A stretch of DNA of 64,000 bases from Eubacteriales bacterium (GTDB taxonomy: Bacteria > Bacillota > Clostridia > Oscillospirales > SIG627), in contig JAZOLO010000009.1 of NCBI GenBank assembly GCA_045653035.1, forward strand, positions 3,277-67,276, written 5' to 3'. Positions 5,543 through 42,858 of this stretch are shown here, one piece after another (positions within the stretch are counted from its first letter, which is position 1; the number at the start of each line of letters is the position of its first letter). The notes beneath the pieces were generated by a model. The model saw only the letters and a program-made list of their open reading frames with translations, was not told the DNA's origin and did not search any database. Position numbers and translations under genes: made by a program.

Positions 5543-6883
5543 CTAAAAATGATAATAAATATTTATTTTTCCCGATGATATAACTATTCTTTCCACGACA
5601 CTTCTTACAATAGCTCTTTTTTCACGCATTCCAAGAGTGTCCCACAAGTCGGAAACGCCTGTTATTTTCTCTTTATAATCCTCTCGTCTAGAGTTCTTTT
5701 TTTCTTTTTCAAGTAATATTTTCTCCTCATCTTTTGCCTTTTCAAGCTTTTTCTTTGTATCTTCTATTACCTTTATCAAAGCATCGTCTCCTTCAGACCA
5801 TAGGTCGTAAAGCTTTACGAGCTTTTTTTCAAGGCGGTCAGCTTTAGAAGTTCTGTCTTTTTGAATTTCCTTTTTGCTTGTTTCTCCTTCCAGCGACATC
5901 GAAAAAATATCGCGAAGAACAGCGTCCTCTACCTCGTCAGCCCAAATTTTTTCAGCCTTGCACAATGGGTCGTGAACAAGATAAGGCTTTGATGTTTGCT
6001 GAGAATAGCAAACAAGCTTATACCCCTTATTGCCCCATTTCTGATATCTCATTCTTGCACCGCATTCACCGCAGTATATAAGCCCTGCAAGAAGGTGAGG
6101 GGAGGAGTCGGATATCCCCCTCTTTCTTTTTTCAAATTCCACCATAGCACGCTCAAAGGTTTCTCTTGAAACAATGGGCTCATGCCCTCCCTCATATTCC
6201 TCTCCCTTGTATTGTATAACTCCGATATTCGTTTTTCTTTTGAGTATCTGTACTACAAGCTTTTCATATTTAAGACCCAACTCAAGGGCAATAGAGTTTG
6301 GAGAGTAGCCCGAAAGAAACATATCGTATATACGCCTTACTGTATCAGCGTCCTCGTTTGGTACAAGTATTCCCTTTACAGGGTCGTAGTCGTAACCAAA
6401 GGGAATTTTACCGCCACCCATCCATAGACCGCCCTTTACTCTTTCTCTCATACCCATTCGGGTCCTTATCTTTATGTTTTCACGTTCAAGCTGTGCAAAA
6501 GCGGAGATAATACCAAGCATAGCCCGTCCGATTGGCGTTGACGTATCCATGTTTTCCGTAAGCGATACAAAATCCACACTGTTCTTATTGAGTACGTCCT
6601 CAATAAGATACAGAGTATCCTTTTGACTTCTTGACAGTCTGTCAAGCTTATACACCGCAACGTGAGAGATTTTCCCGTCTTCAATATCTCTTATCAAAGC
6701 AGTGAGTGCGGGACGGTCAATATTGCTTCCGCTGTAACCGGGGTCAACGTAAAATTCAAAGGATGAAAATCCCTTTGATATACACCAGCCCTCAAGCATC
6801 TTTTTTTGAGCTTCAATAGAGTAGCCTTCCTCTGCCTGCCCCTCGGTGGACACCCTCACGTAAAGAGCCACCTTTTTATTCAT
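5543..6883 (-). CDS. Large serine recombinase (resolvase, recombinase and Zn-ribbon domains; SpoIVCA/SprA/phage-integrase class)
   Basis: ALYVRVSTEGQ catalytic Ser motif, KLDRLSRS, FAQLERENI, GGKIPFGY, HEPIVS, LAGLIYCGECG Zn ribbon, coiled coil. ATG 6883 follows GAGGTG. Confidence 0.93.
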   Translation of the reverse strand: MNKKVALYVRVSTEGQAEEGYSIEAQKKMLEGWCISKGFSSFEFYVDPGYSGSNIDRPALTALIRDIEDGKISHVAVYKLDRLSRSQKDTLYLIEDVLNKNSVDFVSLTENMDTSTPIGRAMLGIISAFAQLERENIKIRTRMGMRERVKGGLWMGGGKIPFGYDYDPVKGILVPNEDADTVRRIYDMFLSGYSPNSIALELGLKYEKLVVQILKRKTNIGVIQYKGEEYEGGHEPIVSRETFERAMVEFEKRKRGISDSSPHLLAGLIYCGECGARMRYQKWGNKGYKLVCYSQQTSKPYLVHDPLCKAEKIWADEVEDAVLRDIFSMSLEGETSKKEIQKDRTSKADRLEKKLVKLYDLWSEGDDALIKVIEDTKKKLEKAKDEEKILLEKEKKNSRREDYKEKITGVSDLWDTLGMREKRAIVRSVVERIVISSGKINIYYHF

Positions 6884-6976: not shown

Positions 6977-7084
6977 ATGAAGATAGAAAGATATATAAAC
7001 GGTCAAAAAGCCACTAAAGAAGAGGTTTCAAAAAAGAAGATAAAGATAAAAAATTACGTTCAGCTTGTTAAAAACTTCAAATAA
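6977..7084 (+). CDS. Small basic protein (35 aa) divergent from the recombinase; candidate recombination directionality factor
   Basis: GAGGTG RBS 6 nt before ATG 6977; MKIERYINGQKATKEEVSKKKIKIKNYVQLVKNFK. The function is inference only. Confidence 0.55.
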   Translation: MKIERYINGQKATKEEVSKKKIKIKNYVQLVKNFK

Positions 7085-8421: not shown

Positions 8422-8422
8422 G

Positions 8423-8842
8423 CTACACCGTCCATTTCTCAAAAGCCTCTGGCAGAGTATAGTCCCCGTCGTCTGCTTCTGCACCTGCAGCATCATTCCA
8501 TCTGTCGAAATTCACTGCAAGAAATAGCTTAACGCCCGAAAAAGCCTCTTTTGAAAAGAGCCTTTCCTCTGCATACTCTTCGATTCTCATAACAGACATT
8601 TTAAGGAATCTATTTATTTCTGGGTCTTCAAACTTGAAAAGCTCCTCACGGCTTTCCACACCCACCGCAAGGGCAAGTCCAGTCACTGTGTAGGGCAGTA
8701 AAACCTTTTTAATAATTTCTCCTTTTTCATCAGTCAATAGATTTCCGTTTTTGTCCTGAACAGGTGCAAGACGTGAGCGGAAATACTCCTCTACACGCTT
8801 TTTTACTTCATTAAAATTTTTTGGTGCTTTTTTATAATTCAT
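8423..8842 (-). CDS. terS: Putative terminase small subunit (gp3-like DNA-packaging protein)
   Basis: 139 aa directly upstream of terL and translationally coupled to it; PYTVTGLALAVG..SREEL, RIEEYAEERLF, GVKLFLAVNF resemble gp3-type TerS. AAAGGAG RBS. Confidence 0.75.
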   Translation of the reverse strand: MNYKKAPKNFNEVKKRVEEYFRSRLAPVQDKNGNLLTDEKGEIIKKVLLPYTVTGLALAVGVESREELFKFEDPEINRFLKMSVMRIEEYAEERLFSKEAFSGVKLFLAVNFDRWNDAAGAEADDGDYTLPEAFEKWTV

Positions 8843-12661: not shown

Positions 12662-15600
12662 TTACGGAGCTCTTAACTTAACTTTTTCGTTGTTCTCGGG
12701 CATATAAACATTAGGAGCAATCCATGAGTCGGGGTTTTCAATTACGTTGTCGTAATCAGTTAGGCCTATCATAACCTTTGCTCTGAGAGGTGCACCAGTT
12801 GTACTTATTCCTCCGTAGGTGAAGGTGTAATCACCTGTAGGTACTGTCACAGAGCCTGTGAAATTAGTTATTTCTTCTGTGTATTTCTGTTTAGTAACTT
12901 TAGTACCATCGTCACCGGTATAATCCTTATAATAATTTATATATGCCTTATTTTCGTCAGGATAATACTCAATATACTCACCTGATTTAAGAGTTACGTT
13001 GAATGTTATTGTATTAGAGCCTATTGTCACAGATGGATTCTGTGCAGGGGTGTCAATTGCTGAACAAACTCTGATATCGTCCATTGTTACACCGCTGACA
13101 TCACCGGTTGTAGAGATAGTAACGTACTTTGAAGTTTCAAGCTTAAACTCATTACGGAAGGTAGCATAGTCGGTAGAGTTATCTGACTTAATGTTTGAGA
13201 ATGAATACCCGTCAAAATCAGCGTTATCGCTATCCATAAGGATGATATCACGCTCACCCGTAAAGTTAAGAGGAATAAAGTAATCTATTCTGTTATTCTG
13301 ATTTACTTTTCCGCCAGAGGTAAGGGTGATAAGAATAGCACCTGTTTCAGAACCGTTACCCTTTACATTTACCTTAAGTACTGGCTTTGATAAAAGCTTA
13401 GTTCCTGTTGTAATCTCAAAGTTTTTTTGATTGTTTTCAAGCGTCGAAAGAACAAGCTTTTCACTAAAGTCAAGTAGTATCTCTTCATTATTACCGTCAG
13501 TAGAATATCTCTGCTCTATTCTGATGAAAGGCTTCTGTGCTCTAAATTGGTTATTACCATTTCCTGTAGCAAATGTGCCGTCTGCCATATCTCTTATAAT
13601 ATTAGCATCGTAATACATTTCGCGGAACGCCCAAGAACCATCGGCCTGCTTAAATATCTTGTATTCCTTGCCTGCTTCAATTCCAACTTTAAGCGCTTCC
13701 TTTACGTCTTCTGAAAAGTAGCCCCCCTCACGTAGTCTTGAATAGGTATTGAAGTAAGTGTAGTTGTCAATGAGTTCAAAGAAATGTTTGAAGTTTGAAA
13801 GGGAGAAGGGCTGAAGAACAGTTGACATATCGTATGCAACTCCCATTACACCGAGTAGGTCAATATCGTCGCGGAAAAGGGTCTTGTTGTAGGTGTTAAT
13901 GTATGTATTACCGCTGCCGGGAGCAAAGTTGAACCATCCGGAGGTAGCTGTAAGATAATCTTTGAAATGGTTCTTGTTTGAATTCAAATGTCCACGATTA
14001 TACTTCTTGTATTGACGGTTGGCATGGTCAACCGCACCTGCCTTACCTCTTGCAGACCAGAAGGATACAGGGAATCTCGAACCTTCCATCATGGGAATCT
14101 TGGAATAATTGCCGTACATCTCATAGCTTGCCTCATATGCTGCTTCGAGCACTGCACGGATAAATTCGGCATAGTAATAGTCTCTGAGGTCTGGGTCACC
14201 GAAAAATTCAATGGACTCGAAGCCGTCGAGGTAAATCATGTCGAATCCGCCTTCAACGCAAGCACGACCTGTAAGATATGCAACGTAATAGTAAAGCTCA
14301 GAGCCAACAATTGGCTGAAGACCGCCGTAGTAGGAGAGGAGCTGTCTGATTTTGCTGTTTTTGTCATGTGCTGTTGCTGTTGTTCCGCACTGTGCACGGC
14401 TAACGGTAAGTGTGCCGTTTGTTGCACTGTAGGATGTAACTAACATGATTTCTTCGTCTACGAGAATATAACCGGAGTAGACATCATTAGCAGATGTACC
14501 AGCAGTTGCACCGCTTTTGTAGAACGTTCTTCCTTCAAGACTTTCGTTAACGTACAATAGTGAAGTTGTAGAAGTTATGTTGTTAGTAAGAGTTAGTACG
14601 TCTTCAGGATAATATTCAATCTGCTGCTGCCACTTGGGCACAGATAGAATTGTTGAAGCCGCAGGAAAAATAAGTGAAGAATAGGTGTGCATACTGAGAA
14701 GAACACCCTCTGCGTTAAGTTTGTCTGCTATTCTTTCTTTGAAGGTAGATGCAGGAATAAAGTCTGTTTCACCTGAGAGTCTCGCTGAAACAAAGTTGAA
14801 GTCACCTTGAATAAAAGAGTTGCTACCCCGATGGAAGTCGATGATTTCAATGGAGTTTGCCTTTGCAACCTGACCTGTTTCGGTAGCGTTAGAAGGGGAG
14901 AGACCGCTACTCTGAATTACATAGTCATAGAATAGGGCATCGTTTTCAGCATCATAGGCGAAAGGAGCCCCCTTTGTTGATGTGATACCTTCCCTGATGT
15001 CGATTGCAAGAACAATTTCCTTGAGGTATTCTCTGTGTTCACCTGTTTTAAGTCCGCCATACTGGGAAAAGGTAATGCCGATTTTAGCACCTATAACGTC
15101 ACCCATCTTAGAAAGAACTCGTCCGATGGTTTTCTTGTAGCTTCCGCCCGGACGGTTGATGGGGTCAGTTGAGGTAGTCATAGGTACTGCTGAAATCCTA
15201 TAAGTGTTATAGTCTGTTTCTGAGAACTCACAGTTAACAGAAATCTGTGCATAATCAAGGTATGCTACGTTGTGAGGAATCTCGGAGTCAAGTTTTACTG
15301 TGAAATAGTTTGGGAAGGCTTCAACAAGGAAGTAAGCCTCGGTATCGTTGGAGAATACTATGTGAAGTCTTCCGTCAACAACGTCAGCATAAATGGGCTC
15401 GAAATAAGCACCCGAGCTGTTTGTAACGCTAGCAAACCAAGGATTCAGTGTTGTTGACAAAACGTTTTCGGTGTTATCTTTATTTATAACTTCGTAAAGA
15501 CGTCCCTTGTTCTTTGAAATAGTAACCTTAACGTGGTCTGTTTCAATGTAGATGAACTCGTCATCTTCTGTTAGACCAGAAGTGTTGTCAATATGTGCAA

Positions 15601-17233
15601 GAGTTTTAACGTTGTCGTTTGATGCAATAAGCACTTGATACTCAGCCCAGTGTCCTTCAATGTCAGGGAACACATTGTCAAGAGTTTCTTTAACTACCGT
15701 GTGTTCATTTGCAGTAAGGTTTATAAGACGGTTTATCATGGTAACAGCTTCCGCTCTTGAAACCTTTGCATCGGGACGGAATGTGCCGTCTGGGTATCCG
15801 TTGATAGTACCTAGCTCTGCAAGATAAGAGATAGCAGGATAATACTTGTAAGTATCCTTAAGGTCGATGAAATTGCTCTTGGATGATTTCTTAACAAATT
15901 TTGCCGCACCGTAGATAAGCTGTGCAAGCTCACCTCTGGTTATATCATCATCGGGATAAAGCTTTCCGCCGTCAAGATAATCGAAAGCCTTGTTATACTC
16001 AAGGAAAGCTACGGCATCGTGATACCACGCATCAACCGTAACATCAGGAATTTTTGAATAGTAGCCACTGGGTAAGGTAAAGCCGTCAAGGGCGAGTCTT
16101 GAAAGAAGAGCTGCAGCTTCAGCCTTTGTAATATTTTCGTCGGGACGGAATGTGCCGTCAGCATATCCCTCAATATATGCTGTGTTAGCACCGTTATACT
16201 GAAGTGCAATAACCATAGCATCATTATTCCAAACAGTGTTATAAGCGGCGGATATGAAGTTTACGGTAAAGCAGGTATTAGTTTTACCTGTTCCCTTAAA
16301 CTGAACGTCTTCTGGAAGGTCACCATAAGGGTAAATTTCAAATCCTACTACCCAACCTGTAGCATTAGGGAAAGCTGACTTTATGGTAGCTGTATGTCTT
16401 GTTCTGTTAGCTTCATTAGTATATGTTGCCATATCTGTCCAGGCATGTGCCGTAACGTTGCCGGTTTCATTCATGGTATAAAGAACAAGCTTTGTTTTAA
16501 GAGGAGCACCCGAAGGGGAGTATGGAATCAAAGATCCCTGTCTTACGCTTACGTCAAATGTTATGTTCTGAAGTTCTTCAATGGGAAGAATTTCATGTGA
16601 CTCGTATGCATAACGGTAAAAAATGCTCTCTACTTCTTCTTCTGCCTGTAATCTGTACTGATTGTTAAGAGGACCGTTTACTGTATCGCCTTTAAGCACG
16701 GCGTCATCAAGAATACTTTTAGAAAGTGAACCCGATATATGAGAGTCCGTTGACATGTAGAGAGGGGTTCCGTTTGGATTAACGTGGAAGGTGTATGGAT
16801 GGGTCCACGTACCTGCAATCCAAGAAGAGGTATACTCTTCTTGAGTATAAACGGCATTTTTACCATGTCCCTTGTAACCTACATCGGAGCGCTCAAGACC
16901 GTCTTCGCCCATCACGTAGAAGAATTTTTTTTCATTATTGAGCTGTTTAAGTCTCACACATATAATGCCGTTTTGTGTAAAAACAGTATTAGAAGTAATT
17001 GTAGTGAAGGTGTTATTATCAAGATTTATTTTGTTTACGGTAAGACCGGCATTATAGTTTTCAAGTGTCACGTAGGTATATTCAGATGCGGTAGATAGAT
17101 TAAGACCTACAAGCTTACCGTTTTCCAAGGTAATGTCGTCAAAAAAACCTGCTGACATTACGGGCAGTGAAAGCAAAACGGCTATAATTATGGTAAGAAA
17201 GAATATGCCAAGCTTTGTTTTGATTTTCTCCAT
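12662..17233 (-). CDS. Secreted SLH-domain protein (1523 aa) with a C-terminal putative glycoside-hydrolase-like module
   Basis: Signal peptide; SLH repeats (GYADGTFRPDENITKAEAA, GYPDGTFRPDAKVSRAEAV); C-terminal ~950 aa paralogous to 17773-22365. Confidence 0.8.
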   Translation of the reverse strand: MEKIKTKLGIFFLTIIIAVLLSLPVMSAGFFDDITLENGKLVGLNLSTASEYTYVTLENYNAGLTVNKINLDNNTFTTITSNTVFTQNGIICVRLKQLNNEKKFFYVMGEDGLERSDVGYKGHGKNAVYTQEEYTSSWIAGTWTHPYTFHVNPNGTPLYMSTDSHISGSLSKSILDDAVLKGDTVNGPLNNQYRLQAEEEVESIFYRYAYESHEILPIEELQNITFDVSVRQGSLIPYSPSGAPLKTKLVLYTMNETGNVTAHAWTDMATYTNEANRTRHTATIKSAFPNATGWVVGFEIYPYGDLPEDVQFKGTGKTNTCFTVNFISAAYNTVWNNDAMVIALQYNGANTAYIEGYADGTFRPDENITKAEAAALLSRLALDGFTLPSGYYSKIPDVTVDAWYHDAVAFLEYNKAFDYLDGGKLYPDDDITRGELAQLIYGAAKFVKKSSKSNFIDLKDTYKYYPAISYLAELGTINGYPDGTFRPDAKVSRAEAVTMINRLINLTANEHTVVKETLDNVFPDIEGHWAEYQVLIASNDNVKTLAHIDNTSGLTEDDEFIYIETDHVKVTISKNKGRLYEVINKDNTENVLSTTLNPWFASVTNSSGAYFEPIYADVVDGRLHIVFSNDTEAYFLVEAFPNYFTVKLDSEIPHNVAYLDYAQISVNCEFSETDYNTYRISAVPMTTSTDPINRPGGSYKKTIGRVLSKMGDVIGAKIGITFSQYGGLKTGEHREYLKEIVLAIDIREGITSTKGAPFAYDAENDALFYDYVIQSSGLSPSNATETGQVAKANSIEIIDFHRGSNSFIQGDFNFVSARLSGETDFIPASTFKERIADKLNAEGVLLSMHTYSSLIFPAASTILSVPKWQQQIEYYPEDVLTLTNNITSTTSLLYVNESLEGRTFYKSGATAGTSANDVYSGYILVDEEIMLVTSYSATNGTLTVSRAQCGTTATAHDKNSKIRQLLSYYGGLQPIVGSELYYYVAYLTGRACVEGGFDMIYLDGFESIEFFGDPDLRDYYYAEFIRAVLEAAYEASYEMYGNYSKIPMMEGSRFPVSFWSARGKAGAVDHANRQYKKYNRGHLNSNKNHFKDYLTATSGWFNFAPGSGNTYINTYNKTLFRDDIDLLGVMGVAYDMSTVLQPFSLSNFKHFFELIDNYTYFNTYSRLREGGYFSEDVKEALKVGIEAGKEYKIFKQADGSWAFREMYYDANIIRDMADGTFATGNGNNQFRAQKPFIRIEQRYSTDGNNEEILLDFSEKLVLSTLENNQKNFEITTGTKLLSKPVLKVNVKGNGSETGAILITLTSGGKVNQNNRIDYFIPLNFTGERDIILMDSDNADFDGYSFSNIKSDNSTDYATFRNEFKLETSKYVTISTTGDVSGVTMDDIRVCSAIDTPAQNPSVTIGSNTITFNVTLKSGEYIEYYPDENKAYINYYKDYTGDDGTKVTKQKYTEEITNFTGSVTVPTGDYTFTYGGISTTGAPLRAKVMIGLTDYDNVIENPDSWIAPNVYMPENNEKVKLRAP

Positions 17234-17280
17234 GTTTTCCTCCTGTATGTTATAGATATGTAATTACGTACTTTTTAGAG

Positions 17281-17508
17281 TTAATTTATATGCTTCTCAA
17301 TGTACTCGCTCATTTTTTTGATAGTTCTGAGTTCTGTAACCTCGTCGTCGGGAATAACTATACCGTATTTATCCTCAATAGTCATAAGAAGTTCAACAAC
17401 GTCAAGTGAATCAGCACCGAGGTCGTCTAAAATGTCAGTTTCTGGAGTAATCTTTGAAGGTTCAATTTTAAGCTGCTTTGAAATTGCTTCGATAATCTGT
17501 TCTATCAT
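17281..17508 (-). CDS. acpP: Acyl carrier protein
   Basis: DLGADSLDVVEL phosphopantetheine site; 75 aa, acidic. Confidence 0.95.
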   Translation of the reverse strand: MIEQIIEAISKQLKIEPSKITPETDILDDLGADSLDVVELLMTIEDKYGIVIPDDEVTELRTIKKMSEYIEKHIN

Positions 17509-17547
17509 GTCTTTGTACCTTTCTTATACAAAATAATTATTCATTAT

Positions 17548-17576
17548 ATTTTACACTTTTTTTAAGCGTTTGTCAA
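17548..17576 (-). promoter_or_regulatory. SigA promoter of acpP
   Basis: TTGACA-N17-TAAAAT on the minus strand. Confidence 0.7.
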
Positions 17577-17722
17577 CGATTAAATAGAACAAATCTACCT
17601 TACTTTTTGAGTGATTTTCACTAAATTTATAAATATACAAAAATGATTGACGCTTTGCTTAATTTGATAATTGTTGAAGTATTTTGTAGTGATGTAGCTT
17701 TTAATAAAATTTGAAAGAATGC

Positions 17723-17756
17723 AAAAAAAGAACGCTTTTTATAAGCGTTCTTTTTA
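17723..17756 (-). terminator. Intrinsic terminator after the SLH gene
   Basis: AAAAAAGAACGCTT...AAGCGTTCTTTTTT. Confidence 0.75.
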
Positions 17757-17772
17757 GTTGGGGTATTATGTT

Positions 17773-20700
17773 TTATTTTATGATAACATCGAGTGATGCA
17801 CCGCCCATGTCAACTTCAGGTGCTACCCAATCAGCAGGGTTAGCAATTACGGCGCCTGAGAAGCCAAGCTTAACCTGTGCACGAAGTGTTGTACCAGTTA
17901 TAGATTCAGCATTATAAGTGTAGGAGAAGGTACCTGCAGGAGCAGTTACGCTGCCTGTGTAGGTTATTTCCTTGGTATGTGCTACTGAGCCTGTCCACTT
18001 GCCAGTTTTTTCGTCGTAGATGTTGTCATAGTAGTTGAGGTAAGCCTTGCCTGTTTCGGGATAGAACTCGATGAATTCACCTGAGTGAATCTCGGTGTTG
18101 AAGGTAATAGTGTTTCCGCCAATTGTAACACTGGGGTTCTTAGCAGGAGCATCAACTGCTGTGTAAGCCTTGATATCGTCTATCTTAACACCTGTAGTAT
18201 CACCTGCAACACCTATCTGTACCTCGTTTATACTCGAACGAGTGGGGTTAGCACGGTAGGTTTCGTAGATGTTGTATGCGTAGTTAAGGTTGCTGAATTT
18301 TGGGCCGGGGTGATCTGCGTTGTCAGCGTCGATGAGTATGAACTCTCTCCATCCTGTATGTGAGGTAGGAATGTAGTAGTCGGTACGTCCCTTTTCAGTT
18401 GATGTAGGTGAGGTAATGGAAATCATTACACCGCCGGTAGAGCTTCCGTTACCGAAAACGTTAACCTTGAATGCATAGTGCTTGGAAAGGTCAACAGGGG
18501 TTGAAAGAGACTTCTTACCTGTGAGAGTTGAAACTTCCTTTGTTTCATCTATATCAAGTAAGAGAACTTCGTTTTCAGAGTTTGTAGAGTATCTTTGCTC
18601 TATTCTGATGAAAGGTGTCTGTGCTGCAAAGGGGTTAGTGCCTTCGCCTGTTACAAAGAGCCTATCTGTCATATCAAATATCCTGTTGTAGATATATGAC
18701 ATTTCACGAAATGCATAAGTACCGTCAGCCTGCTTAAATACCTTGTATTCATATTTGCCGTCGCGTATCTGTGCCTTAACGTCTTCAGCAAAGTAACCCG
18801 CCTTACGAAGTCTTGAGTAAACACTGTAGTACATGAAGTTATCAGAGTGTCTTGTCGAGGATTCGTTTAAAAGCTCTGCAAAGTTGTTGTCAACGTTAGA
18901 GAAGTCGTTAGCGATAGCTATTGAACCCATGTGGTCAAGGTCATCGTGGAACATTGTCTTGTAGATAGTGTTCTTATACTCTTGGTTGCCATCTGGATCA
19001 AAGTTGAACCAACCGAGAATCGCTGTATAGAAAAGCTCGTTCTTTCTGGTTATATTTGCACTGTAGTGACCTATTGTATGAGCCTTGATAGCCTTTGTAG
19101 CAGAGTCGGTAGCACCTACTCGTCCTCTTGCGGGCCAATTAGTTCTGACGCCTGCGGAGTCTTCCATGATAGGAGTCTTTATACACTGAGAAAGAACTCT
19201 GCGATAGAATTCAGAATAGTAGTAATACTGGTGTTCAGCGGGAACAAATTTTATGAATGACTCGAGACCGTCAAGGTAGATGCAGTCGAAGTCACCTTCG
19301 TTGTAAGCCTTTGCTGTAAGGTCAGCTATGTGCCAAAAGAGATCGGAGCCTGCTTTGGGCTGGAATCCACCGTAGTAGCCCTGAAGCTGACGAATAACTG
19401 CACCGTCCGAGTGACGTGCGGGTGTTGTACCGAACATACCTCTCTTACAGTTGAGTAAGCCAGAGGAAGAACCATACTGAACATAAATGATTTCCTCGTC
19501 TATAAGAATGTAGCTTGAATCGCGTGTACCGCTGTACGGGATACCGTTACCACTGAATGCTGAAGCATCCTCGTATGTCTTTACATTTGTACGTGTCTTT
19601 GTAAGGTCACCGCGAAGAGTGTAGGTTGTTTCATTAAACTCGAAATCCTGCTGCCACTTGGGGTCTGACAAAATCGAAGTAGCCTCGCTTTTTACGAGAG
19701 AAGAATAGGTGTGAAGACCTATCTGAAGACCTGCGGCATGTGCAAGGTCAGAAATTCTTTCTTTGAATACAGAGCCGGGGATGAAGGTTCCCTCTTGTTT
19801 TTCAGACTCTGTTCTTGCAGAAATAAAGTTGAAGTCACCCTGTACGAAGATACTACCCTGATGTAAGTCTAACTGGTCAACTGAATACTTCTTTGCTGTA
19901 TCTATAATGTTATTGATGTTTGACAAATCAAAGTTGTTAGTGATGATTGCGTAGTCCTTGAAGAGGTCCTTGTTTTCTTCATCGTATGTGAAGGGGCCTC
20001 CACGTGTGGACATTATACCCTTTGAAGGATCTACTGCAAGAACTAGCTCCTTCATGATTTCCATATGCTCTTCCAAAAGAGTGAAAGCGATACCAACCTT
20101 AACACCCATAGTGTCAAAGCCGATAGTTGTGAGTGTATAAGCACCTACGAGAGAGGTATAGCCTCCGGGTACGGCGAGCTGATTTGCTCTTGTATCCATA
20201 AGGAGGTTTGATGCTCTAAATGTGCCAGGCTCTTCGGATGCGGTATAGTCGAAGTCGATTCTACCGAATGTGAGCTTGGAGAGAGCCTTTGAAATGTTGG
20301 AGTCAAGTTCTACTGTGAAGTAGTTGTCTTTAACGTCAACAATAAAGTAAGCCTCGTATCCGCCCTTAAAGGTGAACTTAAGTCTTCCGTCAACAAGCTC
20401 AAGCTTTGTAGGCTCGAAAAGAGCGCCTGATGCAGTATTAGCAAAAGCAAACCAAGGCTGAGAGTTTGTTGCAAGAACGTTCTTACCTGTGGGAAGGTAA
20501 ATAACGGAATCTACCTTACCGGTCTTCTTGTTAAGTGCAACTTTTATGTGCTTGTTTTGGAATGTAATGGCAGTTGATGTTTCAGTAAATACGTTGGGGT
20601 CAATATTGTAGAAGGAAACACTGTGAACGTTATTATTTGAAGCCATGAGTATCTGATACTCTGCCCAGTGACCTTCAATATCGCTGAATATGTTAGTAAG

Positions 20701-22365
20701 GTGCTCCTTGCTTACAGTATCCTTTGTTGCAAGAAGCGAGAGCATTCTGTTGATAACTGTAACAACCTCAGCTCTTGTGATTGTGGCATCGGGCTTAAAT
20801 GTACCGTCAGCATAACCGTTTACAAGACCTGCAGCTGCACCTGCAACAATTGCGTCATAGTATTTATGAGTTTCTGGAACGTCGGTGAACTTAATGGTTT
20901 CGGTTGCAACAAGGTTGGAAGCAAAGTATGCAAGTTCAACGAATTCAGCTCTTGTTATGGGCTGGTCTGGGAAGTACTTGTCAGAATCATTTGTAAAGTA
21001 GAAACCGTTAGCGTCAAGGTATGCGATGGCATCGTACGCCCAGTGACCTTCAACGTCGGTAAACTTTGTGGTGTTACCTGTGGGAATATCCTGAGTACCT
21101 GCAAGAAGCCTTGCGAAAATAGTGGATGCTTCGGCCTTTGTCATATTGTTGTTGGGCAAGAAAAGATTGCCTGCATAACCGTTGATATAAGCCTTATTTG
21201 CACCATTAGCCTGTGCGGGTGCCTTGGGAAGAAGAGTTACTGGGTCGGGATCGGGAAGGTCTGAAAGATTGAGTTTTACAACAACCTTAGATTCTTCTAT
21301 GTATGCACCAATCTTATTTTCATAGGGGACAGCATATCTGAGGTCAAGAGCACTCTCAGCTTCGGAAAACTTTGCAAGAACAGGAAATGCACCTGAAATG
21401 CTGTATCCGTTAACAAGGTTAGCAAGCACGGAAGCTGTTTCGTAGCCTCTGGCGTTTTTAAACTTGGTTACAACAATGTCTTTACCGGGCTCAGCATTAG
21501 CTGACATTATCATAACGATATTGTCAAACTGAGAAATTGCATAGTTCCATATCTGCTCGCCGTCGAAAGGCTTACCTTTCAATGCCATATTAGTGGTCAA
21601 GGTGGAGTTACCCTTTACAGGAGCGTTGGTGTATGTGTAAACTGTAGGGTCGAACTGTGTAAACATAGCACCGTTCTTGTCAACGAATGATGTCGTAAAT
21701 ACAAACGCTCTCTTGTCGGTGTGTGTAGCGTTAGTGGTCTTGAACCAGTCGAGTACTGCAATCTGAGGATATGCTTCGAGGTTATAAACCACGTACTTTG
21801 TATTACCTTGCTTTACAATAACAGCGAAGTTGTTGTTATCATAGCTGTCGATAACAATATCAGGGGAGCCACCGGTGTAATCCTCTGTTCCAAAATGATT
21901 TGCAACGAAATTGTTACGAACAAGACCCTGTCCGTAGTAGTCGCTCAGATGAAGAGATATACCGTAAGGAACGTTCACTTCTGTGAGAAGGGAAGCAAAA
22001 TTCTTAAGAGTGGTATACTCTTTGATCATTTCCTTGTCGGCATCGTTTTTTGCAATAACGTTGTCAACATTTTTACCGGAATTGCTGTAAAGGTGTTTTG
22101 AGCCGGAAGAAATATTTCCGATAAATCCTACGTACTTAATGTTGTACTTGTTTGCATAGTCAACGAGCCAGTAGCAAGCATCCTCAAGGGGATCGGTATT
22201 AACCAAATCACCTAAGAAGGGCTTTATGCCGTTGAAACTTGCAAGTACAATTTCATCATCAGCTACGTAGTCATCTTCAAAGGGGACGTATCCTGCAACA
22301 GATACAGCCGAAAGAAGAATTGTAATAGCGAGGATAGATAAAATGGTTGCGAGTAATTTTTTCAT
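17773..22365 (-). CDS. Secreted SLH-domain protein (1530 aa) with a degenerate metallophosphoesterase-like N-domain and a putative glycoside-hydrolase-like C-module
   Basis: Signal peptide; SLH repeats (GYADGTFKPDATITRAEVV); shared blocks QGDFNF.SAR, D.IYLDG.ES, GWFNF.P, PFIRIEQRYST. Confidence 0.8.
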   Translation of the reverse strand: MKKLLATILSILAITILLSAVSVAGYVPFEDDYVADDEIVLASFNGIKPFLGDLVNTDPLEDACYWLVDYANKYNIKYVGFIGNISSGSKHLYSNSGKNVDNVIAKNDADKEMIKEYTTLKNFASLLTEVNVPYGISLHLSDYYGQGLVRNNFVANHFGTEDYTGGSPDIVIDSYDNNNFAVIVKQGNTKYVVYNLEAYPQIAVLDWFKTTNATHTDKRAFVFTTSFVDKNGAMFTQFDPTVYTYTNAPVKGNSTLTTNMALKGKPFDGEQIWNYAISQFDNIVMIMSANAEPGKDIVVTKFKNARGYETASVLANLVNGYSISGAFPVLAKFSEAESALDLRYAVPYENKIGAYIEESKVVVKLNLSDLPDPDPVTLLPKAPAQANGANKAYINGYAGNLFLPNNNMTKAEASTIFARLLAGTQDIPTGNTTKFTDVEGHWAYDAIAYLDANGFYFTNDSDKYFPDQPITRAEFVELAYFASNLVATETIKFTDVPETHKYYDAIVAGAAAGLVNGYADGTFKPDATITRAEVVTVINRMLSLLATKDTVSKEHLTNIFSDIEGHWAEYQILMASNNNVHSVSFYNIDPNVFTETSTAITFQNKHIKVALNKKTGKVDSVIYLPTGKNVLATNSQPWFAFANTASGALFEPTKLELVDGRLKFTFKGGYEAYFIVDVKDNYFTVELDSNISKALSKLTFGRIDFDYTASEEPGTFRASNLLMDTRANQLAVPGGYTSLVGAYTLTTIGFDTMGVKVGIAFTLLEEHMEIMKELVLAVDPSKGIMSTRGGPFTYDEENKDLFKDYAIITNNFDLSNINNIIDTAKKYSVDQLDLHQGSIFVQGDFNFISARTESEKQEGTFIPGSVFKERISDLAHAAGLQIGLHTYSSLVKSEATSILSDPKWQQDFEFNETTYTLRGDLTKTRTNVKTYEDASAFSGNGIPYSGTRDSSYILIDEEIIYVQYGSSSGLLNCKRGMFGTTPARHSDGAVIRQLQGYYGGFQPKAGSDLFWHIADLTAKAYNEGDFDCIYLDGLESFIKFVPAEHQYYYYSEFYRRVLSQCIKTPIMEDSAGVRTNWPARGRVGATDSATKAIKAHTIGHYSANITRKNELFYTAILGWFNFDPDGNQEYKNTIYKTMFHDDLDHMGSIAIANDFSNVDNNFAELLNESSTRHSDNFMYYSVYSRLRKAGYFAEDVKAQIRDGKYEYKVFKQADGTYAFREMSYIYNRIFDMTDRLFVTGEGTNPFAAQTPFIRIEQRYSTNSENEVLLLDIDETKEVSTLTGKKSLSTPVDLSKHYAFKVNVFGNGSSTGGVMISITSPTSTEKGRTDYYIPTSHTGWREFILIDADNADHPGPKFSNLNYAYNIYETYRANPTRSSINEVQIGVAGDTTGVKIDDIKAYTAVDAPAKNPSVTIGGNTITFNTEIHSGEFIEFYPETGKAYLNYYDNIYDEKTGKWTGSVAHTKEITYTGSVTAPAGTFSYTYNAESITGTTLRAQVKLGFSGAVIANPADWVAPEVDMGGASLDVIIK

Positions 22366-22614: not shown

Positions 22615-22706
22615 GGAAAGGTGGCTGAGCTGGTCTAAGGCGCACGACTGGAAATCGTGTGTCGGCTAATACCCGACCGAGGGTTCGAATCCCTCCCTTT
22701 CCGCCA
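22615..22706 (+). tRNA. tRNA-Ser (GGA)
   Basis: Acceptor stem GGAAAGG/CCTTTCC, anticodon arm CACGA-CT-GGA-AA-TCGTG, long variable arm, GGTTCGAATCC T-arm, encoded CCA. Confidence 0.97.
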
Positions 22707-23095: not shown

Positions 23096-24088
23096 TTGAA
23101 AAATACAATAACAGCGGTAAGTTTAGCACTCATTCTTGCGTTTTGTATGATAAGTGTTACCGCTTTTGACGATATGCCAAATGACTGGTCGACTGTGGCT
23201 TTGCAAAGTGCCGTAGATAACGGACTTTTAAAGGGAACAGATAACAAGCTTCTGCCTAAAGACAAGCTTACTCGTGCACAGATGGCTACCATTCTTGTAA
23301 GAGCCCTTGGTGCTACGGAAACTACCGACATATCACAGTTTACCGATGTTCCGAAAAATGCATGGTATTACAGTGCTATGGCAACCGCTTATAAAATGGG
23401 GATTTTTAAAGGCGATGGTGCAGGTAAAATGAGTCCCGATGCCTTTATAACAAGACAGGAAGCCTTTGTAGTGTTGGCACGTGCATTCAATCTTAAAGCT
23501 TCCACAACGTCTGCCATTGAAAAATTTAACGATTTTGATAAGGTTGCCACATGGGCAAGACCAGAAATTGAAGCGCTTGTAGTTAACGGATACGTCGGAG
23601 GAAGCGGCGGTATGCTCAATCCGCTTTCCAATATAACAAGAGCTGAATTTTCACAGGTAATGTATAACCTTAATAAGGCTTACGTTGATAGCCTTTTGGA
23701 TCTTAATTCTCTTGGAAACGTTAAGGGTAACGTTATTATCCGAGGAAGTGAAATAACCAATATACAGAATGTGACAATAAACGGTGACCTTATTATTGGT
23801 GACGGCATGTCGCGGAATATGACCTTCAAAAACGTTAAGGTCAACGGCAGACTCGTTATAAGAACTACAGGTAACGTTTCCTTCGACGGCAGTGCACAAG
23901 AGCTTGTAATTGCCTTTGATAATACAACGGTTACAAAGTCAAGCACTTCTGTTATAAACAAAAGTACAATAAATGGCAATAACTCCTTTCTAAAAACCGA
24001 ATCCGATTTGGGAACAGGCACGGATACGGGTACAGGTACAGTAACTCCTCCTGAAAAAGAAGAAGATATTTGGACTGACTTCCATTAA
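23096..24088 (+). CDS. SLH-domain surface protein
   Basis: TTG start after GAGGA RBS; signal peptide; three SLH repeats (LTRAQMA, ITRQEAF, ITRAEFS); GT-rich tail. Confidence 0.88.
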   Translation: MKNTITAVSLALILAFCMISVTAFDDMPNDWSTVALQSAVDNGLLKGTDNKLLPKDKLTRAQMATILVRALGATETTDISQFTDVPKNAWYYSAMATAYKMGIFKGDGAGKMSPDAFITRQEAFVVLARAFNLKASTTSAIEKFNDFDKVATWARPEIEALVVNGYVGGSGGMLNPLSNITRAEFSQVMYNLNKAYVDSLLDLNSLGNVKGNVIIRGSEITNIQNVTINGDLIIGDGMSRNMTFKNVKVNGRLVIRTTGNVSFDGSAQELVIAFDNTTVTKSSTSVINKSTINGNNSFLKTESDLGTGTDTGTGTVTPPEKEEDIWTDFH

Positions 24089-24092
24089 AAAA

Positions 24093-24127
24093 CAAGTCTT
24101 GCACCGCAGTGCAAGACTTATTTTTTA
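24093..24127. terminator. Bidirectional terminator
   Basis: AAGTCTTGCAC-cgca-GTGCAAGACTT between convergent genes. Confidence 0.8.
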
Positions 24128-25735
24128 TTTCTTTATTTTATTTCTTAAACTTAAAAGCCTACGACCTGCAGGAAGGTCCAGAAGTTCATCGTCATTGAAT
24201 GTTTTTGATGCAAGAATAAGCACACCGTATACGATAACAGCCACAGGGAGAGAAACTACCATTGAGAAAAGCAAGTTGTTGGTTATTGTATTCGTAACGT
24301 AATAAACGGAATAGGTTACGACTCCCATGAAAGCCGATATAAAAACAGGCAGCAAAAAAACGTTTTTTATTTTCGGGGAATAAGATGTTTCTGATTTCAG
24401 CGTAGCGTAGTTAAGAAAAGCTGTGACAAGAGGGAATGTAACGTCGGCTATAAGCCTTGCGTATATTCCAAGCGATGTGAACTTCAAAAGAAAGTAAATC
24501 AAAGCAGTATGAAATGTAAAGGAAATAAATGCATTAACTACAGGAGCTCTCATTTTCCCATTACCCTGTAAAACGGATGTAGTAATAATTGATAATGAAT
24601 AAAATACACAACCTACAGATCCGTATTTAAGCAGAGCAATTGCTACCTCGCGGTAGGTTACAAGACTTGGAAAAAGCACCGTCATTATTGGTCTTGCAAG
24701 AACTGCGAGTCCTACGGCAGAGGGTATCGATACAGCCATCGTAAGCTTAATTACACCATCAATCTTTTGATTTTTTTCTTCATGCCGTCCTTCGGTAAAA
24801 AGTCTTACAACTGCAGGAAGAGTAGAGGCTGCAAGTGCTGTTGAAATAGCAATGGGCAGATTTACAAGTCCTGAATACTGTGTATTGAACACTCCTTGTA
24901 AAGAGGAAATAGCCTTGTCCGTAAGACCATTCGCTTCCATAACATTTCCGAAAATCAAATCGTCAACAGTAAAGCTTATCTGAAATACTGTCTGACTAAG
25001 TATTATGGGAATCATTGTAAGAACTATTTCTCGATATGTGTCACGTTTCCTTTCGGTCTCGTAAGTATCACTGTTTATTTCGATTCTTATCGCACTCAGT
25101 CTTGATATGAAGAAAAGAGAGAGCATTATGAGAGCACCGAAAGCACCAGCTAGAGTACCCATTGTAGCTCCTGCCGCACCGATTGCAGATGAGCCGTAAT
25201 TTTTTATAAAGAGCCAAGTGGCAAAAATACTGACTATTGCATTTATTATTTGTTCAATAATTTGTGAGAGAGCCGTGGGAAGCATATTTGAATGTCCCTG
25301 AAAATATCCTCTGAATACTCCCAAAAGAGCTACGATAAAGGTGGTTGGTGCGAGTACTCGTAAGGGGTACATAAGCCCCGATCTTCCATAAAGTGCTTCA
25401 AGAAATTCCGCACCGAAGAAAAGAACACAAAAGGCAGATGTACCTGCAATAAGAGCAAATACCAAAGCTCTTTTGAAAAGAATATAAGCATTTTTTTTGC
25501 TCTTTACTGCAAGTCTTTCCGACACAAGCTTTGAAAGAGCAAGGGGAAGCGAATAAGAGGAGAGTGTAAGTGCTACGTTATAAATACCAAAGGCCACAGA
25601 GTAAATTCCGTTTCCTTCCTCGCCAAGCATATTCGCCATGGGAATTCTATAAATAAAGCCAATTATTTTAGTTATTATTCCTGCAAGGGCAAGAATTACA
25701 CCCTGAACAATAAGAGAGTTATTTTTCTTTTTCAT
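24125..25735 (-). CDS. MOP-superfamily flippase (SpoVB/MurJ-like polysaccharide biosynthesis protein)
   Basis: KIIGFIYRIP..LGEEG.GIY, RGYFQG..NM.PTA.SQIIEQI; ~14 TM segments. Start placed at ATG 25735 after GAGGTG. Confidence 0.88.
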   Translation of the reverse strand: MKKKNNSLIVQGVILALAGIITKIIGFIYRIPMANMLGEEGNGIYSVAFGIYNVALTLSSYSLPLALSKLVSERLAVKSKKNAYILFKRALVFALIAGTSAFCVLFFGAEFLEALYGRSGLMYPLRVLAPTTFIVALLGVFRGYFQGHSNMLPTALSQIIEQIINAIVSIFATWLFIKNYGSSAIGAAGATMGTLAGAFGALIMLSLFFISRLSAIRIEINSDTYETERKRDTYREIVLTMIPIILSQTVFQISFTVDDLIFGNVMEANGLTDKAISSLQGVFNTQYSGLVNLPIAISTALAASTLPAVVRLFTEGRHEEKNQKIDGVIKLTMAVSIPSAVGLAVLARPIMTVLFPSLVTYREVAIALLKYGSVGCVFYSLSIITTSVLQGNGKMRAPVVNAFISFTFHTALIYFLLKFTSLGIYARLIADVTFPLVTAFLNYATLKSETSYSPKIKNVFLLPVFISAFMGVVTYSVYYVTNTITNNLLFSMVVSLPVAVIVYGVLILASKTFNDDELLDLPAGRRLLSLRNKIKK

Positions 25736-25753
25736 AAAGCACCTCATTGATTT

Positions 25754-25782: not shown

Positions 25783-25809
25783 TAACTGCGTTTTCAACAA
25801 TCGACGTTC

Positions 25810-26367
25810 ATGCCAATGATAATCGGTGAAATAAGAAGATACCTTCGAGACAACAACATGATAAGGGTAAGCCGTTCTGTAAGAGATATAGCATATAAAG
25901 CACTATCAGCAAAGGAAAAGCTCAATTCAATACTATCAAGAGAACCAACCCTTGAAGAACTGACAAACGAGGTTAACAGACGTGCCGTTCTTGAGGCAGA
26001 GGAAAAAAAACGTGTTGAGGGGATTGATATACCACCTGTAGTTTATACTGAAAAGATGATATCCAATGCTCTTGATGCTGTGGTAGCACCCGTATCACTT
26101 TTTGAACCTGTGTACTCCGACAACGGTGATTCGATTTTTATAATGGACCAGCTATGCGACAATAAAAACAACGATGGCGTGTGGACTGAGAGTATCGCAA
26201 TATCCGAGGCTATGAAAAAGCTTTCTGAGAGGAAAAGTAAAATAATAAATATGCGTTTCTTTATGGAGAATACTCAGATGGAGGTAGCGGAAGAAGTAGG
26301 CATAAGTCAGGCACAGGTATCCCGTCTTGAAAAGGGAGCGCTTGAGCAAATAAAGAAAAATATATAA
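25810..26367 (+). pseudogene. sigG: 3' half of sporulation sigma factor SigG (regions 2.4 to 4 only; split or truncated gene)
   Basis: PMIIGEIRRYLRDNN.IRVSRS.RDIAYKAL, PVSLFEPVY.D.GD.I..MDQ and TQMEVAEE.GISQAQVSRLEK match SigG rather than SigF. In-frame TAA at 25783-25785, no RBS, ~100 N-terminal residues absent. Confidence 0.85.
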
Positions 26368-26370
26368 AAA

Positions 26371-26400
26371 TAAGATGAACGTCATTTGACGTTCATCTTA
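26371..26400. terminator. Bidirectional terminator between the sigG fragment and yajC
   Basis: TAAGATGAACGTCA-tt-TGACGTTCATCTTA. Confidence 0.8.
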
Positions 26401-41379: not shown

Positions 41380-42858
41380 TTACAGTATGATGCAAATGAG
41401 ACCGTTTGATCCTTCGTTTATTATTCTCTGAAGTGTTTCACCGATTTTCTTTCTTGTATCCTCGGGCATGTGTTCAAGCTTAGAATTAAGCCCTTCGTTT
41501 ACAAGGCAGTGAAGAGATTTACCAAACATATTGGATTCCCAAAGCTTTAAGGGGTTTTCCTCAAACTCATTGAGAAGGTATTTCACCATTTCCTCCGATT
41601 GCTTTTCACTGCCAACTATTGGATTTATTTCGGTTTTTATTTTTGCTTTTATCATGTGTATGGTGTCGGCAGATGCCTTGAGCTTTACGCCGTAGCCTCC
41701 CGATTGCTTTATGATTTCGGGCTCCTCAAGTGACAGCTCCTCAACCCCTGGTACAACTATTCCGTATCCGTTATCCTCGGCAGATTTCAGTGCGTCTGCA
41801 ATTTTGTCGTAAGTCTTTTTTGCGCTTGATAGCGTACTTAACAAAGATAAAAGCTCCTTTTGTGAATTTATTTCTTCACCGCTTAAATCGCTTGCAACGC
41901 TGTAAAACAGTGTATCGCCTATATCCACACGTATTGTGCTTTTACCTGTGCCGAGGTCAGTTTTGACAACAGTTGCTTTATCTATAATGTCGTTTTTGGA
42001 CATTGCCTCACAGGCTCCGTGAACAGATGCAACGTTTGTTATCATTTCGGCGGTTTCACGCATTGCGGAGCTTAAAGTTTTTTTGATTTCACTGCTTACG
42101 TCAAGAACAGAGAGCCAGGACGGAATATCTATTTCAAGCTCTGTTACGGGGAACTCGAAAAGGCAAAGCTCCAGTATATGCTCTATATCCTTGCGGTCAA
42201 GCTCGGTACAGTTTATGAGAGCAACGGGCACAGAGTGCTTTTTTTCAAGCTCAAGAGCTACTTCTATGCTTGTATCGGAGTCAGGATATTTTGAATTTAC
42301 TACTATTACAAAGGGCTTACCGGATTTTTTAAGGTCGGAAATAACTCTTTTTTCGCTTTCCTCAAAATCCTTTCTCGAAAGCTCGCCAAAGCTTCCGTCT
42401 GAGGTAATGAGAACACCTATTGTGGAATGCTCGTCAATAACCTTTTTAGTGCCTGTTTCAGCAGCAACCTCAAAAGGAAGAGGGGAGGAGGACCAAGGAG
42501 TCATCACCATTCTGTCCTCGCCGTTTTCACGAAGTCCCTCTGCCCCGTCAACGATGTATCCCACACAGTCAATCATCTTGACGTTAAGACATGCACCCGT
42601 ATCGAGAGTTATGCCCACTGCCTTTTCGGGAACAAATTTCGGCTCGGTAGTCATAACAGTCTTGCCCGTTGCACTTTGAGGCATTTCGTCTGTAGCCCTT
42701 GCTCTCTCACTGTCACTTTCAATATTTGGCAGAACAAGCTCTTCCATGAACTTTTTTATGAAGGTTGATTTGCCTGTTCTTACAGGTCCTACAACGCCTA
42801 TGTAAACGTCGCCGTTTGTTCTGGCTCTTATGTCCTCATATATTCTGGTATTCATCAT
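41380..42858 (-). CDS. spoIVA: Stage IV sporulation protein A
   Basis: IYEDI.ART.GDVYIGVVGPVRTGKSTFIKKFM, MTTEPKFVP, C-terminal RIINEGS.GLICIIL. Confidence 0.97.
   Translation of the reverse strand: MMNTRIYEDIRARTNGDVYIGVVGPVRTGKSTFIKKFMEELVLPNIESDSERARATDEMPQSATGKTVMTTEPKFVPEKAVGITLDTGACLNVKMIDCVGYIVDGAEGLRENGEDRMVMTPWSSSPLPFEVAAETGTKKVIDEHSTIGVLITSDGSFGELSRKDFEESEKRVISDLKKSGKPFVIVVNSKYPDSDTSIEVALELEKKHSVPVALINCTELDRKDIEHILELCLFEFPVTELEIDIPSWLSVLDVSSEIKKTLSSAMRETAEMITNVASVHGACEAMSKNDIIDKATVVKTDLGTGKSTIRVDIGDTLFYSVASDLSGEEINSQKELLSLLSTLSSAKKTYDKIADALKSAEDNGYGIVVPGVEELSLEEPEIIKQSGGYGVKLKASADTIHMIKAKIKTEINPIVGSEKQSEEMVKYLLNEFEENPLKLWESNMFGKSLHCLVNEGLNSKLEHMPEDTRKKIGETLQRIINEGSNGLICIIL

Follow-up and report, generated by a model that had tools for sequence, protein, structure and literature searches.

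The rearrangements of sporulation genes that have been described occur in the mother cell, which dies, and the inherited genome is left unchanged (PMC4191935 and PMC6957869, in the sections available to us). Only mother-cell targets are described in the available sections of PMC4191935, PMC5595907 and PMC6957869, the last of which words this as 'almost all'. Sigma-G is the late forespore factor (PMC4191935, same sections), and a survey (bioRxiv 10.1101/2022.02.25.481979), in its available part, records sigG from all spore-formers and mentions skin-like inserts for sigK, cotJC and spoIIID alone. Neither a split sigG nor the inversion of a forespore gene came up in a literature search; supplements, such as Tables S3 and S7 of the survey, were outside that search and could list further interrupted genes. 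Here we analyze a 64,000-nucleotide stretch of a Eubacteriales genome (the window, positions 3277-67276 of contig C9) that carries the 3' half of sigG. The 5' half of the gene lies on another contig, C8, and the two halves end at the attachment (att) sites of a large serine recombinase (LSR) encoded in the window. The window genome, G000, comprises 1.18 Mb in 21 contigs and is 85% complete. It was compared with 40 relatives, 15 of the same genus and 25 of other genera.

The open reading frame (ORF) at 25810-26367 on the plus strand encodes 185 aa, beginning MPMIIGEIRRYLRD. SigG equivalogs headed the NCBIfam ranking for this half (NF006071 at 220.8 bits, TIGR02850 at 216.5), with SigF at 162.6 bits. 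Pfam recognized sigma-70 region 4 (E 4.1e-13) and no region 2, and a search of the whole genome with the SigG profile showed that the 3' half covers model positions 88-254 only. The curated SigG cut-off of 457 bits is out of reach for either half, and the intact sigG genes of relatives also fall below it (0 of 41 genomes exceed it). Membership of the family is supported by the higher score of the 3' half against SigG than against SigF, together with model positions 1-102, which the 5' half adds. An in-frame TAA at 25783-25785 precedes the ATG at 25810 by nine codons, and a purine-rich Shine-Dalgarno sequence was looked for 5' of this ATG and not found. A first reading, made from the letters alone (the sequence-only reading), had called the fragment an orphan 3' half of sigG with an upstream in-frame stop and no ribosome-binding site, abutting the -35 element of a divergent flippase promoter and uninterrupted to its stop and a terminator, and on all of these points our results agree with it (Table 1). 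The codon preceding CCA ATG differs among the genus genomes (ATG, ATT, GTG or ATC), and we read the ATG at 25810 as part of a recombinase arm, not as a conserved start. The hairpin that follows the sigG stop is unconserved in sequence, the closest relative having a related hairpin with other letters and other relatives having unrelated ones. Both sides of its stem carry a 9-mer of the inner half-site of the recombinase arm, probably by chance.

A lone 5' half ending at the same point was the preset test of the sequence-only reading, and one was found on C8, with the same end codon, a shared core and att-like inverted repeats. This half carries a promoter and the ribosome-binding site AAAGGAGG, and its ORF reads MYNKVEICGVNT...LFSTYAVPM, followed by four foreign codons and a stop. 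The genome gave nine matches to the SigG model, none of which spans the whole model, and a full-length sigG, which the sequence-only reading had named, in combination with a missing 5' half, as fatal to its proposal, was not found in this profile search over the contigs. The other matches were two RpoD-like genes on C3 (123 and 119 bits), SigE and weaker ones. The RpoD-like genes are adjacent at C3:58367-60296 on the minus strand, with frames of 387 and 395 aa, and the tandem is kept in most genus genomes.

Both junctions have the structure of recombinase sites. On the attR side, the sequence before CCA ATG ATA reads TTTTCAAC-AATC-GACGTTC-ATG, and on the attL side, after GTG CCA ATG on C8, it reads AACGTC-AAAA-GTTGAAA, which mirrors the attR flank. 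The half-site ATGAAYGTC-N4-GTNGAAA is thus present on both arms, mirrored around CC. When the 15 genus junctions were aligned, the majority fraction in the arms was 0.79 (attL) and 0.82 (attR), compared with 0.42 and 0.53 in the DNA beyond. The outer inverted-repeat arm, TTTTCRAC, is kept throughout the genus and has its mirror image at the other junction. It is this outer arm that the sequence-only reading mistook, in the form TTT-TCA-ACA, for a remnant of the F-S-T codons of sigG; the real FSTYAVPM is intact on C8. One dinucleotide alone, the CC of gtgCCaatg, is unchanged across the genus genomes and shared between attL and attR in each of them; the bases beside it differ between the two junctions in G003, G005 and G007. 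Joining the halves at CC gives the in-frame fusion ...YAVPMIIGEIRRYL (...FSTYAVPMIIGEIRRYL; ...YAVPM-IIGEIRRYL), and we place the crossover of the recombinase at this dinucleotide. The Met codon after the crossover is universal in the genus, and the tails that follow the 5' half vary in length and sequence.

The split is a property of the genus. All 15 same-genus genomes have sigG only as halves on separate contigs, and in none is the gene continuous across the junction. The 5' half was found in 14 of the 15 (not in G013, 71% complete), as was the 3' half (not in G010, 84% complete). Full-length sigG is present in 22 of the 25 genomes of other genera, and in G024 the gene is cut by contig ends and is continuous over the site; outside the genus, a split at the same point occurs in G018 and in G025, a member of another family. 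Because the same junction is seen in 14 other independently assembled genus genomes, an assembly chimera, against which the sequence-only reading had cautioned, is excluded. Over 105 pairs from 15 genomes, the Nei-Gojobori ratio of nonsynonymous to synonymous substitution (dN/dS) came to 0.072 (5' half) and 0.071 (3' half), the proportion of synonymous differences (pS) being 0.69-0.75. There were no internal stops in either half in the 15 genomes, with synonymous sites near saturation. Values near 0.07 in both halves argue against a decaying relic. The motifs RFFMENTQ and ERKSK, which had been raised as possible signs of decay, are found in the window genome alone; the other 14 genus members have RFF(M/L)GKTQ (RFYMGKTQ in one), and these private substitutions stand in a gene under strong purifying selection and do not indicate decay.

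The LSR is the only one that a genome-wide search found in G000. It has the catalytic domain, recombinase domain, zinc ribbon and C-terminal extension of its family, and the ALYxRVSTE catalytic motif (RVST) is intact in 15 of 15 sequences. A small serine invertase of the Hin/Gin type (~190 aa) was ruled out, since the protein has 446 aa and the C-terminal domains of large recombinases. NCBIfam XisF is among its matches, at 137 bits, under the cut-off of 375. Orthologs occur in all 15 genus genomes (57-90% identity) and in G025 (51%), and genera with an intact sigG gave partial matches only, at no more than 49% identity. The ratio of nonsynonymous to synonymous differences (pN/pS) for the LSR is 0.28 by Nei-Gojobori, with pS saturated. 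The gene is embedded in core genes, and in all 13 genus loci with enough context its neighbours are the terL-like gene on one side and orf136-prmA-rsmE on the other. Its distance to attR is 19 kb, and the terL-like gene, pgi, glnA type III, genes for SLH proteins, tRNA-Ser and the flippase gene intervene. The G025 ortholog, accompanied by a co-directional small ORF, is situated 2.7 kb downstream of the 3' half, outside the position expected of a simple insert, and is a second non-canonical layout.

We searched species-representative genomes with an alignment of the genus LSRs, which yielded at least 591 relatives, and examined the best 80 loci. A sigG half lies directly beside the LSR stop in 41 of these 80: in 29, a sigG 5' half encoded on the other strand ends 20-90 nt from this stop, and in 12, a sigG 3' half on the same strand directly follows the LSR. 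Six of the 80 loci hold both halves, in direct orientation and 2.5, 4.35, 4.35, 6.7, 6.8 and 14.7 kb apart, one of them in a complete genome. The junctions of this family (35 attL, 16 attR) use the same codon and the same arms as those of the window's genus. Judged by these sequence comparisons, the LSR of the genus is a descendant of a family of small mobile elements that insert at the same sigG codon.

Divergent from the LSR is a small ORF that we consider a candidate recombination directionality factor. All 14 genus loci in which the LSR start is covered have it, at 25-36 aa and with TTG, GTG or ATT starts in some. Its pN/pS is 0.24 over codons 2-24, and no Pfam family matched it. In 26 of the 80 related loci, a 40-55-aa protein sharing this N-terminus is encoded co-directionally with the LSR and overlaps its start; in the window's genus the gene has thus been flipped and shortened. 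A predicted complex of the small protein with LSR residues 150-445 scored 0.70 against 0.01 for the best control, a score attained by 116 of 157 solved complexes and by 2 of 215 mismatched pairs. Three model runs share at least 70% of contacts, with a pLDDT (predicted local distance difference test) of 70-72 for the small protein, whose residues 1-9 pair in the model with the last strand of the LSR (437-445) and contact 312-332. The model supports binding of the small protein to the LSR C-terminal region, which is where the directionality factors of other serine integrases reportedly act. We also considered orf136 for this role and rejected it, as it is a housekeeping gene present in 39 of 41 genomes, including those that have no LSR.

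Promoter-like motifs were read by eye against the B. subtilis consensus, and were given little weight. GG(T/G)AATACT occurs ~30 nt before the ribosome-binding site of every genus 5' half. GTATA-N14/15-GGnnAAAA precedes the small ORF in six genomes including G000, and GAATA-N18-CATAATTA precedes the LSR in four other genus genomes.

The relative orientation of the halves was reconstructed from synteny. In seven genus genomes a single contig carries the junction of C9:1 with C5:1 (greA, lysS), and for the closest relative the match holds down to the nucleotide level. C5 carries greA, lysS, a MatE transporter gene, a D-Ala-D-Ala carboxypeptidase gene, ribF, ligA and groEL. In G001 and G010, the contig with the sigG 5' half also carries groEL and ligA, 6-10 kb upstream of it and so oriented that the far end of C5 meets C8:1, and in G010 the 5'-half contig ends ~1 kb (on the C5 map) from the start of the LSR contig. 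The order in G000 would then be 3' half (-), attR, flippase, LSR, greA, groEL, pduL, 5' half (+), attL. Since C5 connects the DNA upstream of the 5' half with the DNA beyond attR, the att sites would be inverted, enclosing by contig synteny 52.8 kb plus two gaps, with lysS, ligA and groEL inside. With inverted sites, excision cannot rejoin sigG, and inversion can. Exact end-overlaps of G000 contigs numbered five, of 141 nt, none involving C5, C8 or C9, and GC skew and gene-strand bias are compatible with both orientations. A 105-nt stretch, 79% identical and inverted, is present at the synteny-joined ends C5:327-431 and C9:87-191, and this repeat may have broken the assembly. C8, otherwise a minus-strand contig, has an island at ~55-80 kb with reversed coding-strand bias and a GC skew of +0.083 at 70-80 kb.

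The flanks of both sites are core chromosome. The order flippase, attR, 3' half, yajC is uninterrupted in 13 of 15 genus attR loci, G000 included; the exceptions are G011, in which a 357-aa ORF lies between flippase and attR, and G006, in which the flippase is lost to a contig end. Upstream of the 5' half, a GGGtGRT protein, orf234 and pduL are encoded in every genus locus whose contig extends that far. Beyond attL, 0-6 kb of variable cargo is followed by a Mur-ligase-like gene and an ECF S-component gene in 13 of 15 genus attL loci (G000 among them), and in G000 then by the his operon and the main ribosomal-protein, rpoA and secY cluster. As core chromosome adjoins both att sites, there is no dispensable insert. 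Among seven same-family genomes with an intact sigG, four have the gene within 10 kb of rsmE, PucR, glnA3 or the terL-like gene, the neighbourhood in which the LSR and attR of the window's genus now reside; no single-step path to the present layout could be derived from these seven flanks.

Serine integrases acting alone recombine only attP with attB, and recombination of attL with attR needs a directionality factor. From the results above we infer that a reversible inversion switch, now domesticated, reassembles sigG during sporulation, and this covers its geometry, protein binding, timing, cell type and return flip; we regard this account as somewhat likelier to be right than wrong. The timing, the cell type and the return flip are drawn from what is established about sigma-G and about the directionality of large serine recombinases. 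In growing cells, sigG would be off, in two pieces. During sporulation, the small protein would act as the directionality factor and let the LSR recombine attL with attR; the whole segment would flip, the halves would be fused in frame at CC, and sigma-G would be made in the forespore. Because the forespore genome is inherited, the split state would have to be restored afterwards, and by the directionality rule of serine integrases the LSR alone could later recombine attB with attP, flip the segment back and split sigG again. Separate promoters for the LSR and the small ORF would be what a two-way switch needs, where the mobile relatives have a coupled pair. A more specific version holds that a selfish sigG-targeting element was domesticated into a heritable two-state germ-line switch, kept throughout the genus, which the outgrowing cell flips back with the LSR alone; this we offer tentatively, at somewhat less than an even chance. 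The sequence-only reading had proposed that the split gene is rejoined in development, by inversion or re-integration. The two halves, the att sites and the single LSR speak for rejoining, and the inverted geometry that we reconstruct fits its mechanism; a rejoined form and developmental timing were not seen.

A number of observations weigh against the inversion switch. No intact sigG copy was present in the 16 genus assemblies, and the motif of the joined element-side site was found in 0 of the 16, consensus assemblies displaying the majority state only. The two gaps are unbridged in G000, and the link between C5 and C8 comes from two more distant genus members. In G010, contig C6 (L084, L202, L206, L215, L216), which carries the LSR, passes directly from glnA3 to ~80 kb of genes whose place in G000 is beyond attL, ending with the his operon, and neither the flippase nor the 3' half was found in the G010 assembly; another rearrangement, a loss or a misassembly could each account for this contig. 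The central block of G008 is inverted, with its groEL on the attR contig, and in G002 and G008 another gene occupies the place beyond attL. SigF was not found in G000 (85% complete) by the genome profile search. The evidence for forespore-type promoters is weak and differs between two groups of genomes, and a sigma-70 scan of the spacer between the LSR and the small ORF gave one weak match, no more than shuffled sequences did. Finally, we know of no characterized natural counterpart of a heritable flip that is undone in each generation.

Sequences from outside the assemblies gave no instance of the rejoined gene. A metagenome scan with the 3' half returned six loci, all of them intact sigG of other lineages at no more than 59% identity and none from the genus, and one public run (0.08 of sampled words, 80% likeness) contained short low-depth contigs of relatives, none usefully bridging the junction. 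Among public runs, no RNA data set with this stretch was found.

The strongest competitor is a phase-variable switch, in which the same flip would occur stochastically or in response to a signal in growing cells, leaving a minority with an intact sigG, able to finish sporulation, and a majority unable to do so, and having no coupling to forespore development. The structural evidence applies to it equally, the presence of only the split state in 16 assemblies is what would be expected if intact cells were a minority, and the promoter evidence for forespore timing is weak. We nevertheless think it unlikely. The small ORF and the LSR are divergent, with separate sigma-F/G-like motifs (by eye), as opposed to the translational coupling of the canonical family, and there would be a high cost, since cells fixed in the split state would enter sporulation only to die when sigma-G is needed.

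Much less probable is a direct orientation of the att sites, in which rejoining would excise a circle of more than 160 kb, including the ribosomal-protein cluster, that would be kept in the non-dividing forespore and re-integrated at germination. The canonical family does work by excision, the assembly gives no relative orientation of the contigs and the strand bias fits either layout, but the connection of both flanks by C5 forces the inverted orientation.

We give similarly little credence to a two-piece sigma factor, whose halves would never be rejoined and whose 100-aa N-terminal piece would act together with a C-terminal piece made from an internal Met. Two-subunit sigma factors exist, as in SigO-RsoA of B. 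subtilis, and both the strong purifying selection on the two halves and the universal Met codon after the crossover are in keeping with one. Such a factor is hard to reconcile with a 3' half that has no Shine-Dalgarno sequence, with the lack of a conserved start at the codon before the crossover, with the occupation of the 60 nt before this half by a recombinase arm and the promoter of the divergent flippase gene, or with the variable tails after the 5' half, and it leaves the conservation of the non-coding att arms, the LSR and its partner unexplained. The last alternative, that an old recombinase accident broke sigG and the genus stopped using the gene, is hardly credible: the genomes are small, SigF was missed in G000 and the region 4 substitutions are private to it, but the low dN/dS and stop-free halves in 15 genomes, and the retention of SpoIVA (15 of 16 genus genomes), SigE and SigF (SigF-like matches in 12 of 15 genus relatives), tell against such a relic. 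The inversion switch therefore remains the account that we prefer.

The features on which this account draws, and others of the window, are collected in Table 1. The flippase scored 225 bits against NCBIfam spore_V_B, under the cut-off of 372, and is specific to the genus, with 57-86% identity inside it and no more than 31% outside. Between glnA and the flippase, the window encodes two paralogous SLH proteins of 1,523 and 1,530 aa (12662-22365, minus strand) and one of 330 aa (23096-24088, plus strand), with tRNA-Ser(GGA) at 22615-22706 among them. The giant SLH genes number three or four in relatives, where contigs often break. The terL-like gene stands alone, with no other phage genes nearby, and its identity within the genus is 67-92%. 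G022, a relative that has no LSR, carries a copy with 68% identity at 9 kb from its intact sigG, and the terL-like gene looks like a domesticated one rather than a prophage remnant of the sigG element.

Table 1. Coordinates of features in the window (positions without a contig name) and on contig C8 of the same genome.
Feature	Position	Strand	Basis and details
Window share of the putative invertible segment	1..25812		Pfam annotation; continues left via C5 and C8:1-4033; holds ABC transporter, PucR, rsmE, prmA, orf136, LSR, small ORF, terL-like, pgi, glnA type III, SLH proteins, tRNA-Ser, flippase
Large serine recombinase (LSR)	5543..6883	-	446 aa; Pfam PF00239 Resolvase, PF07508 Recombinase, PF13408 Zn_ribbon_recom
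Small ORF, candidate recombination directionality factor	6977..7081	+	35 aa, MKIERYING...; divergent from LSR; GAGGTG ribosome-binding site
terL-like gene	7060-8496	-	Pfam Terminase_3; NCBIfam PBSX family 63 bits, below cut-off
SpoVB/MurJ-like flippase, P-side neighbour of attR	24125..25747	-	Pfam Polysacc_synt and MurJ
Divergent flippase promoter	25782-25754	-	TTGACA-17-TATTAT, upstream TG; 11/12 to sigma-70 consensus
attR	25791..25835		P arm TTTTCAAC (25791-25798), 4-nt spacer, GACGTTCAT (25803-25811); CC 25813-25814; sigG-derived B' arm
sigG 3' half	25813..26367 incl. stop	+	End of region 2.4, regions 3 and 4; NCBIfam SigG equivalogs
Terminator-like hairpin 3' of sigG stop	26371..26400	+	13-bp stem; consensus scan
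SpoIVA gene	41380-42858		Found in 15 of 16 genus genomes
SigE gene	49311-50030		322.6 bits against SigE model
sigG 5' half	C8:3731-4033	+ in the inferred order	Second-best SigG match, C8:3737-4042, model positions 1-102, 154.4 bits

The slot on the attL side, C8:4034-7041 in G000 and L042-L055 in relatives, varies within the genus. The Mur-ligase-like gene follows immediately in five genomes, and others carry 1-6 kb of cargo that differs among them and includes small unknown ORFs, a toxin-antitoxin pair of the YafQ/RelB type and ORFs of 470-877 aa; the slot may be a landing pad for other cassettes. Several other families of the order (G033, G022, G035, G032, G027) have the Mur-ligase-like gene directly upstream of spoIIAA-spoIIAB-sigF, an adjacency that is broken in the window's genus exactly at attL. 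The target motif YAVPMIIGEI may, we presume, be conserved in SigF too.

A split sigG under selection implies either that the inherited forespore chromosome is rearranged and restored in each generation, or that sporulation is switched at the level of DNA, and either option, if true, would be a new rule for bacterial development. There is also a consequence for annotation, since methods that score gene presence would record these genomes as lacking sigG and hence as non-spore-formers.

With the intervening elements of sporulation genes, such as skin, SPbeta, vfbin, vrin and gin, the locus shares a gene split in frame at recombinase att sites, and the LSR does lie inside the segment; a discrete, dispensable insert in direct orientation is not what we found, as the flanks are core and the att sites appear to be inverted. 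The closest described parallel is skin in sigK (B. subtilis, with SpoIVCA and Skr, and C. difficile), where likewise a sigma factor gene is split in frame, with a small directionality factor as the presumed timer of rejoining, according to the available sections of PMC4191935, PMC6957869 and PMC5025042. Skin is excisable, with direct att sites and the recombinase at its edge, and is removed only in the terminal mother cell, so that the spore keeps skin. The window's genus differs in having a forespore target, apparently inverted att sites around at least 53 kb of essential DNA, an LSR 19 kb from attR, and a change that would pass to the progeny if it were not undone. SPbeta in spsM (SprA/SprB) and gin in gerE of B. 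cereus also pair a recombinase with a small directionality factor that has its own sporulation promoter, and gin indicates that a non-phage element can rebuild a sporulation gene (PMC4191935, PMC5499854, PMC5595907, in the sections available). Unlike the locus described here, both target mother-cell genes and act by excision.

The compact sigG elements are the nearest in sequence, sharing the orthologous recombinase (50-58% identity), the insertion codon, the att arms and the small-protein family. They are direct inserts of 2.5-14.7 kb, in which the recombinase touches attL or attR and a small ORF overlaps its start, whereas in the window's genus the LSR stands apart from both att sites, the small ORF has been turned round and reduced to 25-36 aa, and the att sites are distant and, by our reconstruction, inverted. 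What would set the genus apart is thus a genus-wide, selected and domesticated form, with a geometry that permits rejoining only by inversion. Anabaena fdxN/XisF is another developmental rearrangement by a large serine recombinase, and differs in that it is an excision in the terminally differentiated heterocyst. The logic is that of the synthetic Bxb1 'RAD' module, in which the integrase alone reportedly flips attB/attP to attL/attR and the integrase plus excisionase flips back. That module differs in being synthetic and in acting on short segments on plasmids or at engineered loci, where we propose a natural chromosomal switch. The inverted layout suggests that domestication can turn the recombinase of a mobile element into a toggle for a large piece of chromosome, the equivalent in nature of memory switches engineered from an integrase and an excisionase.

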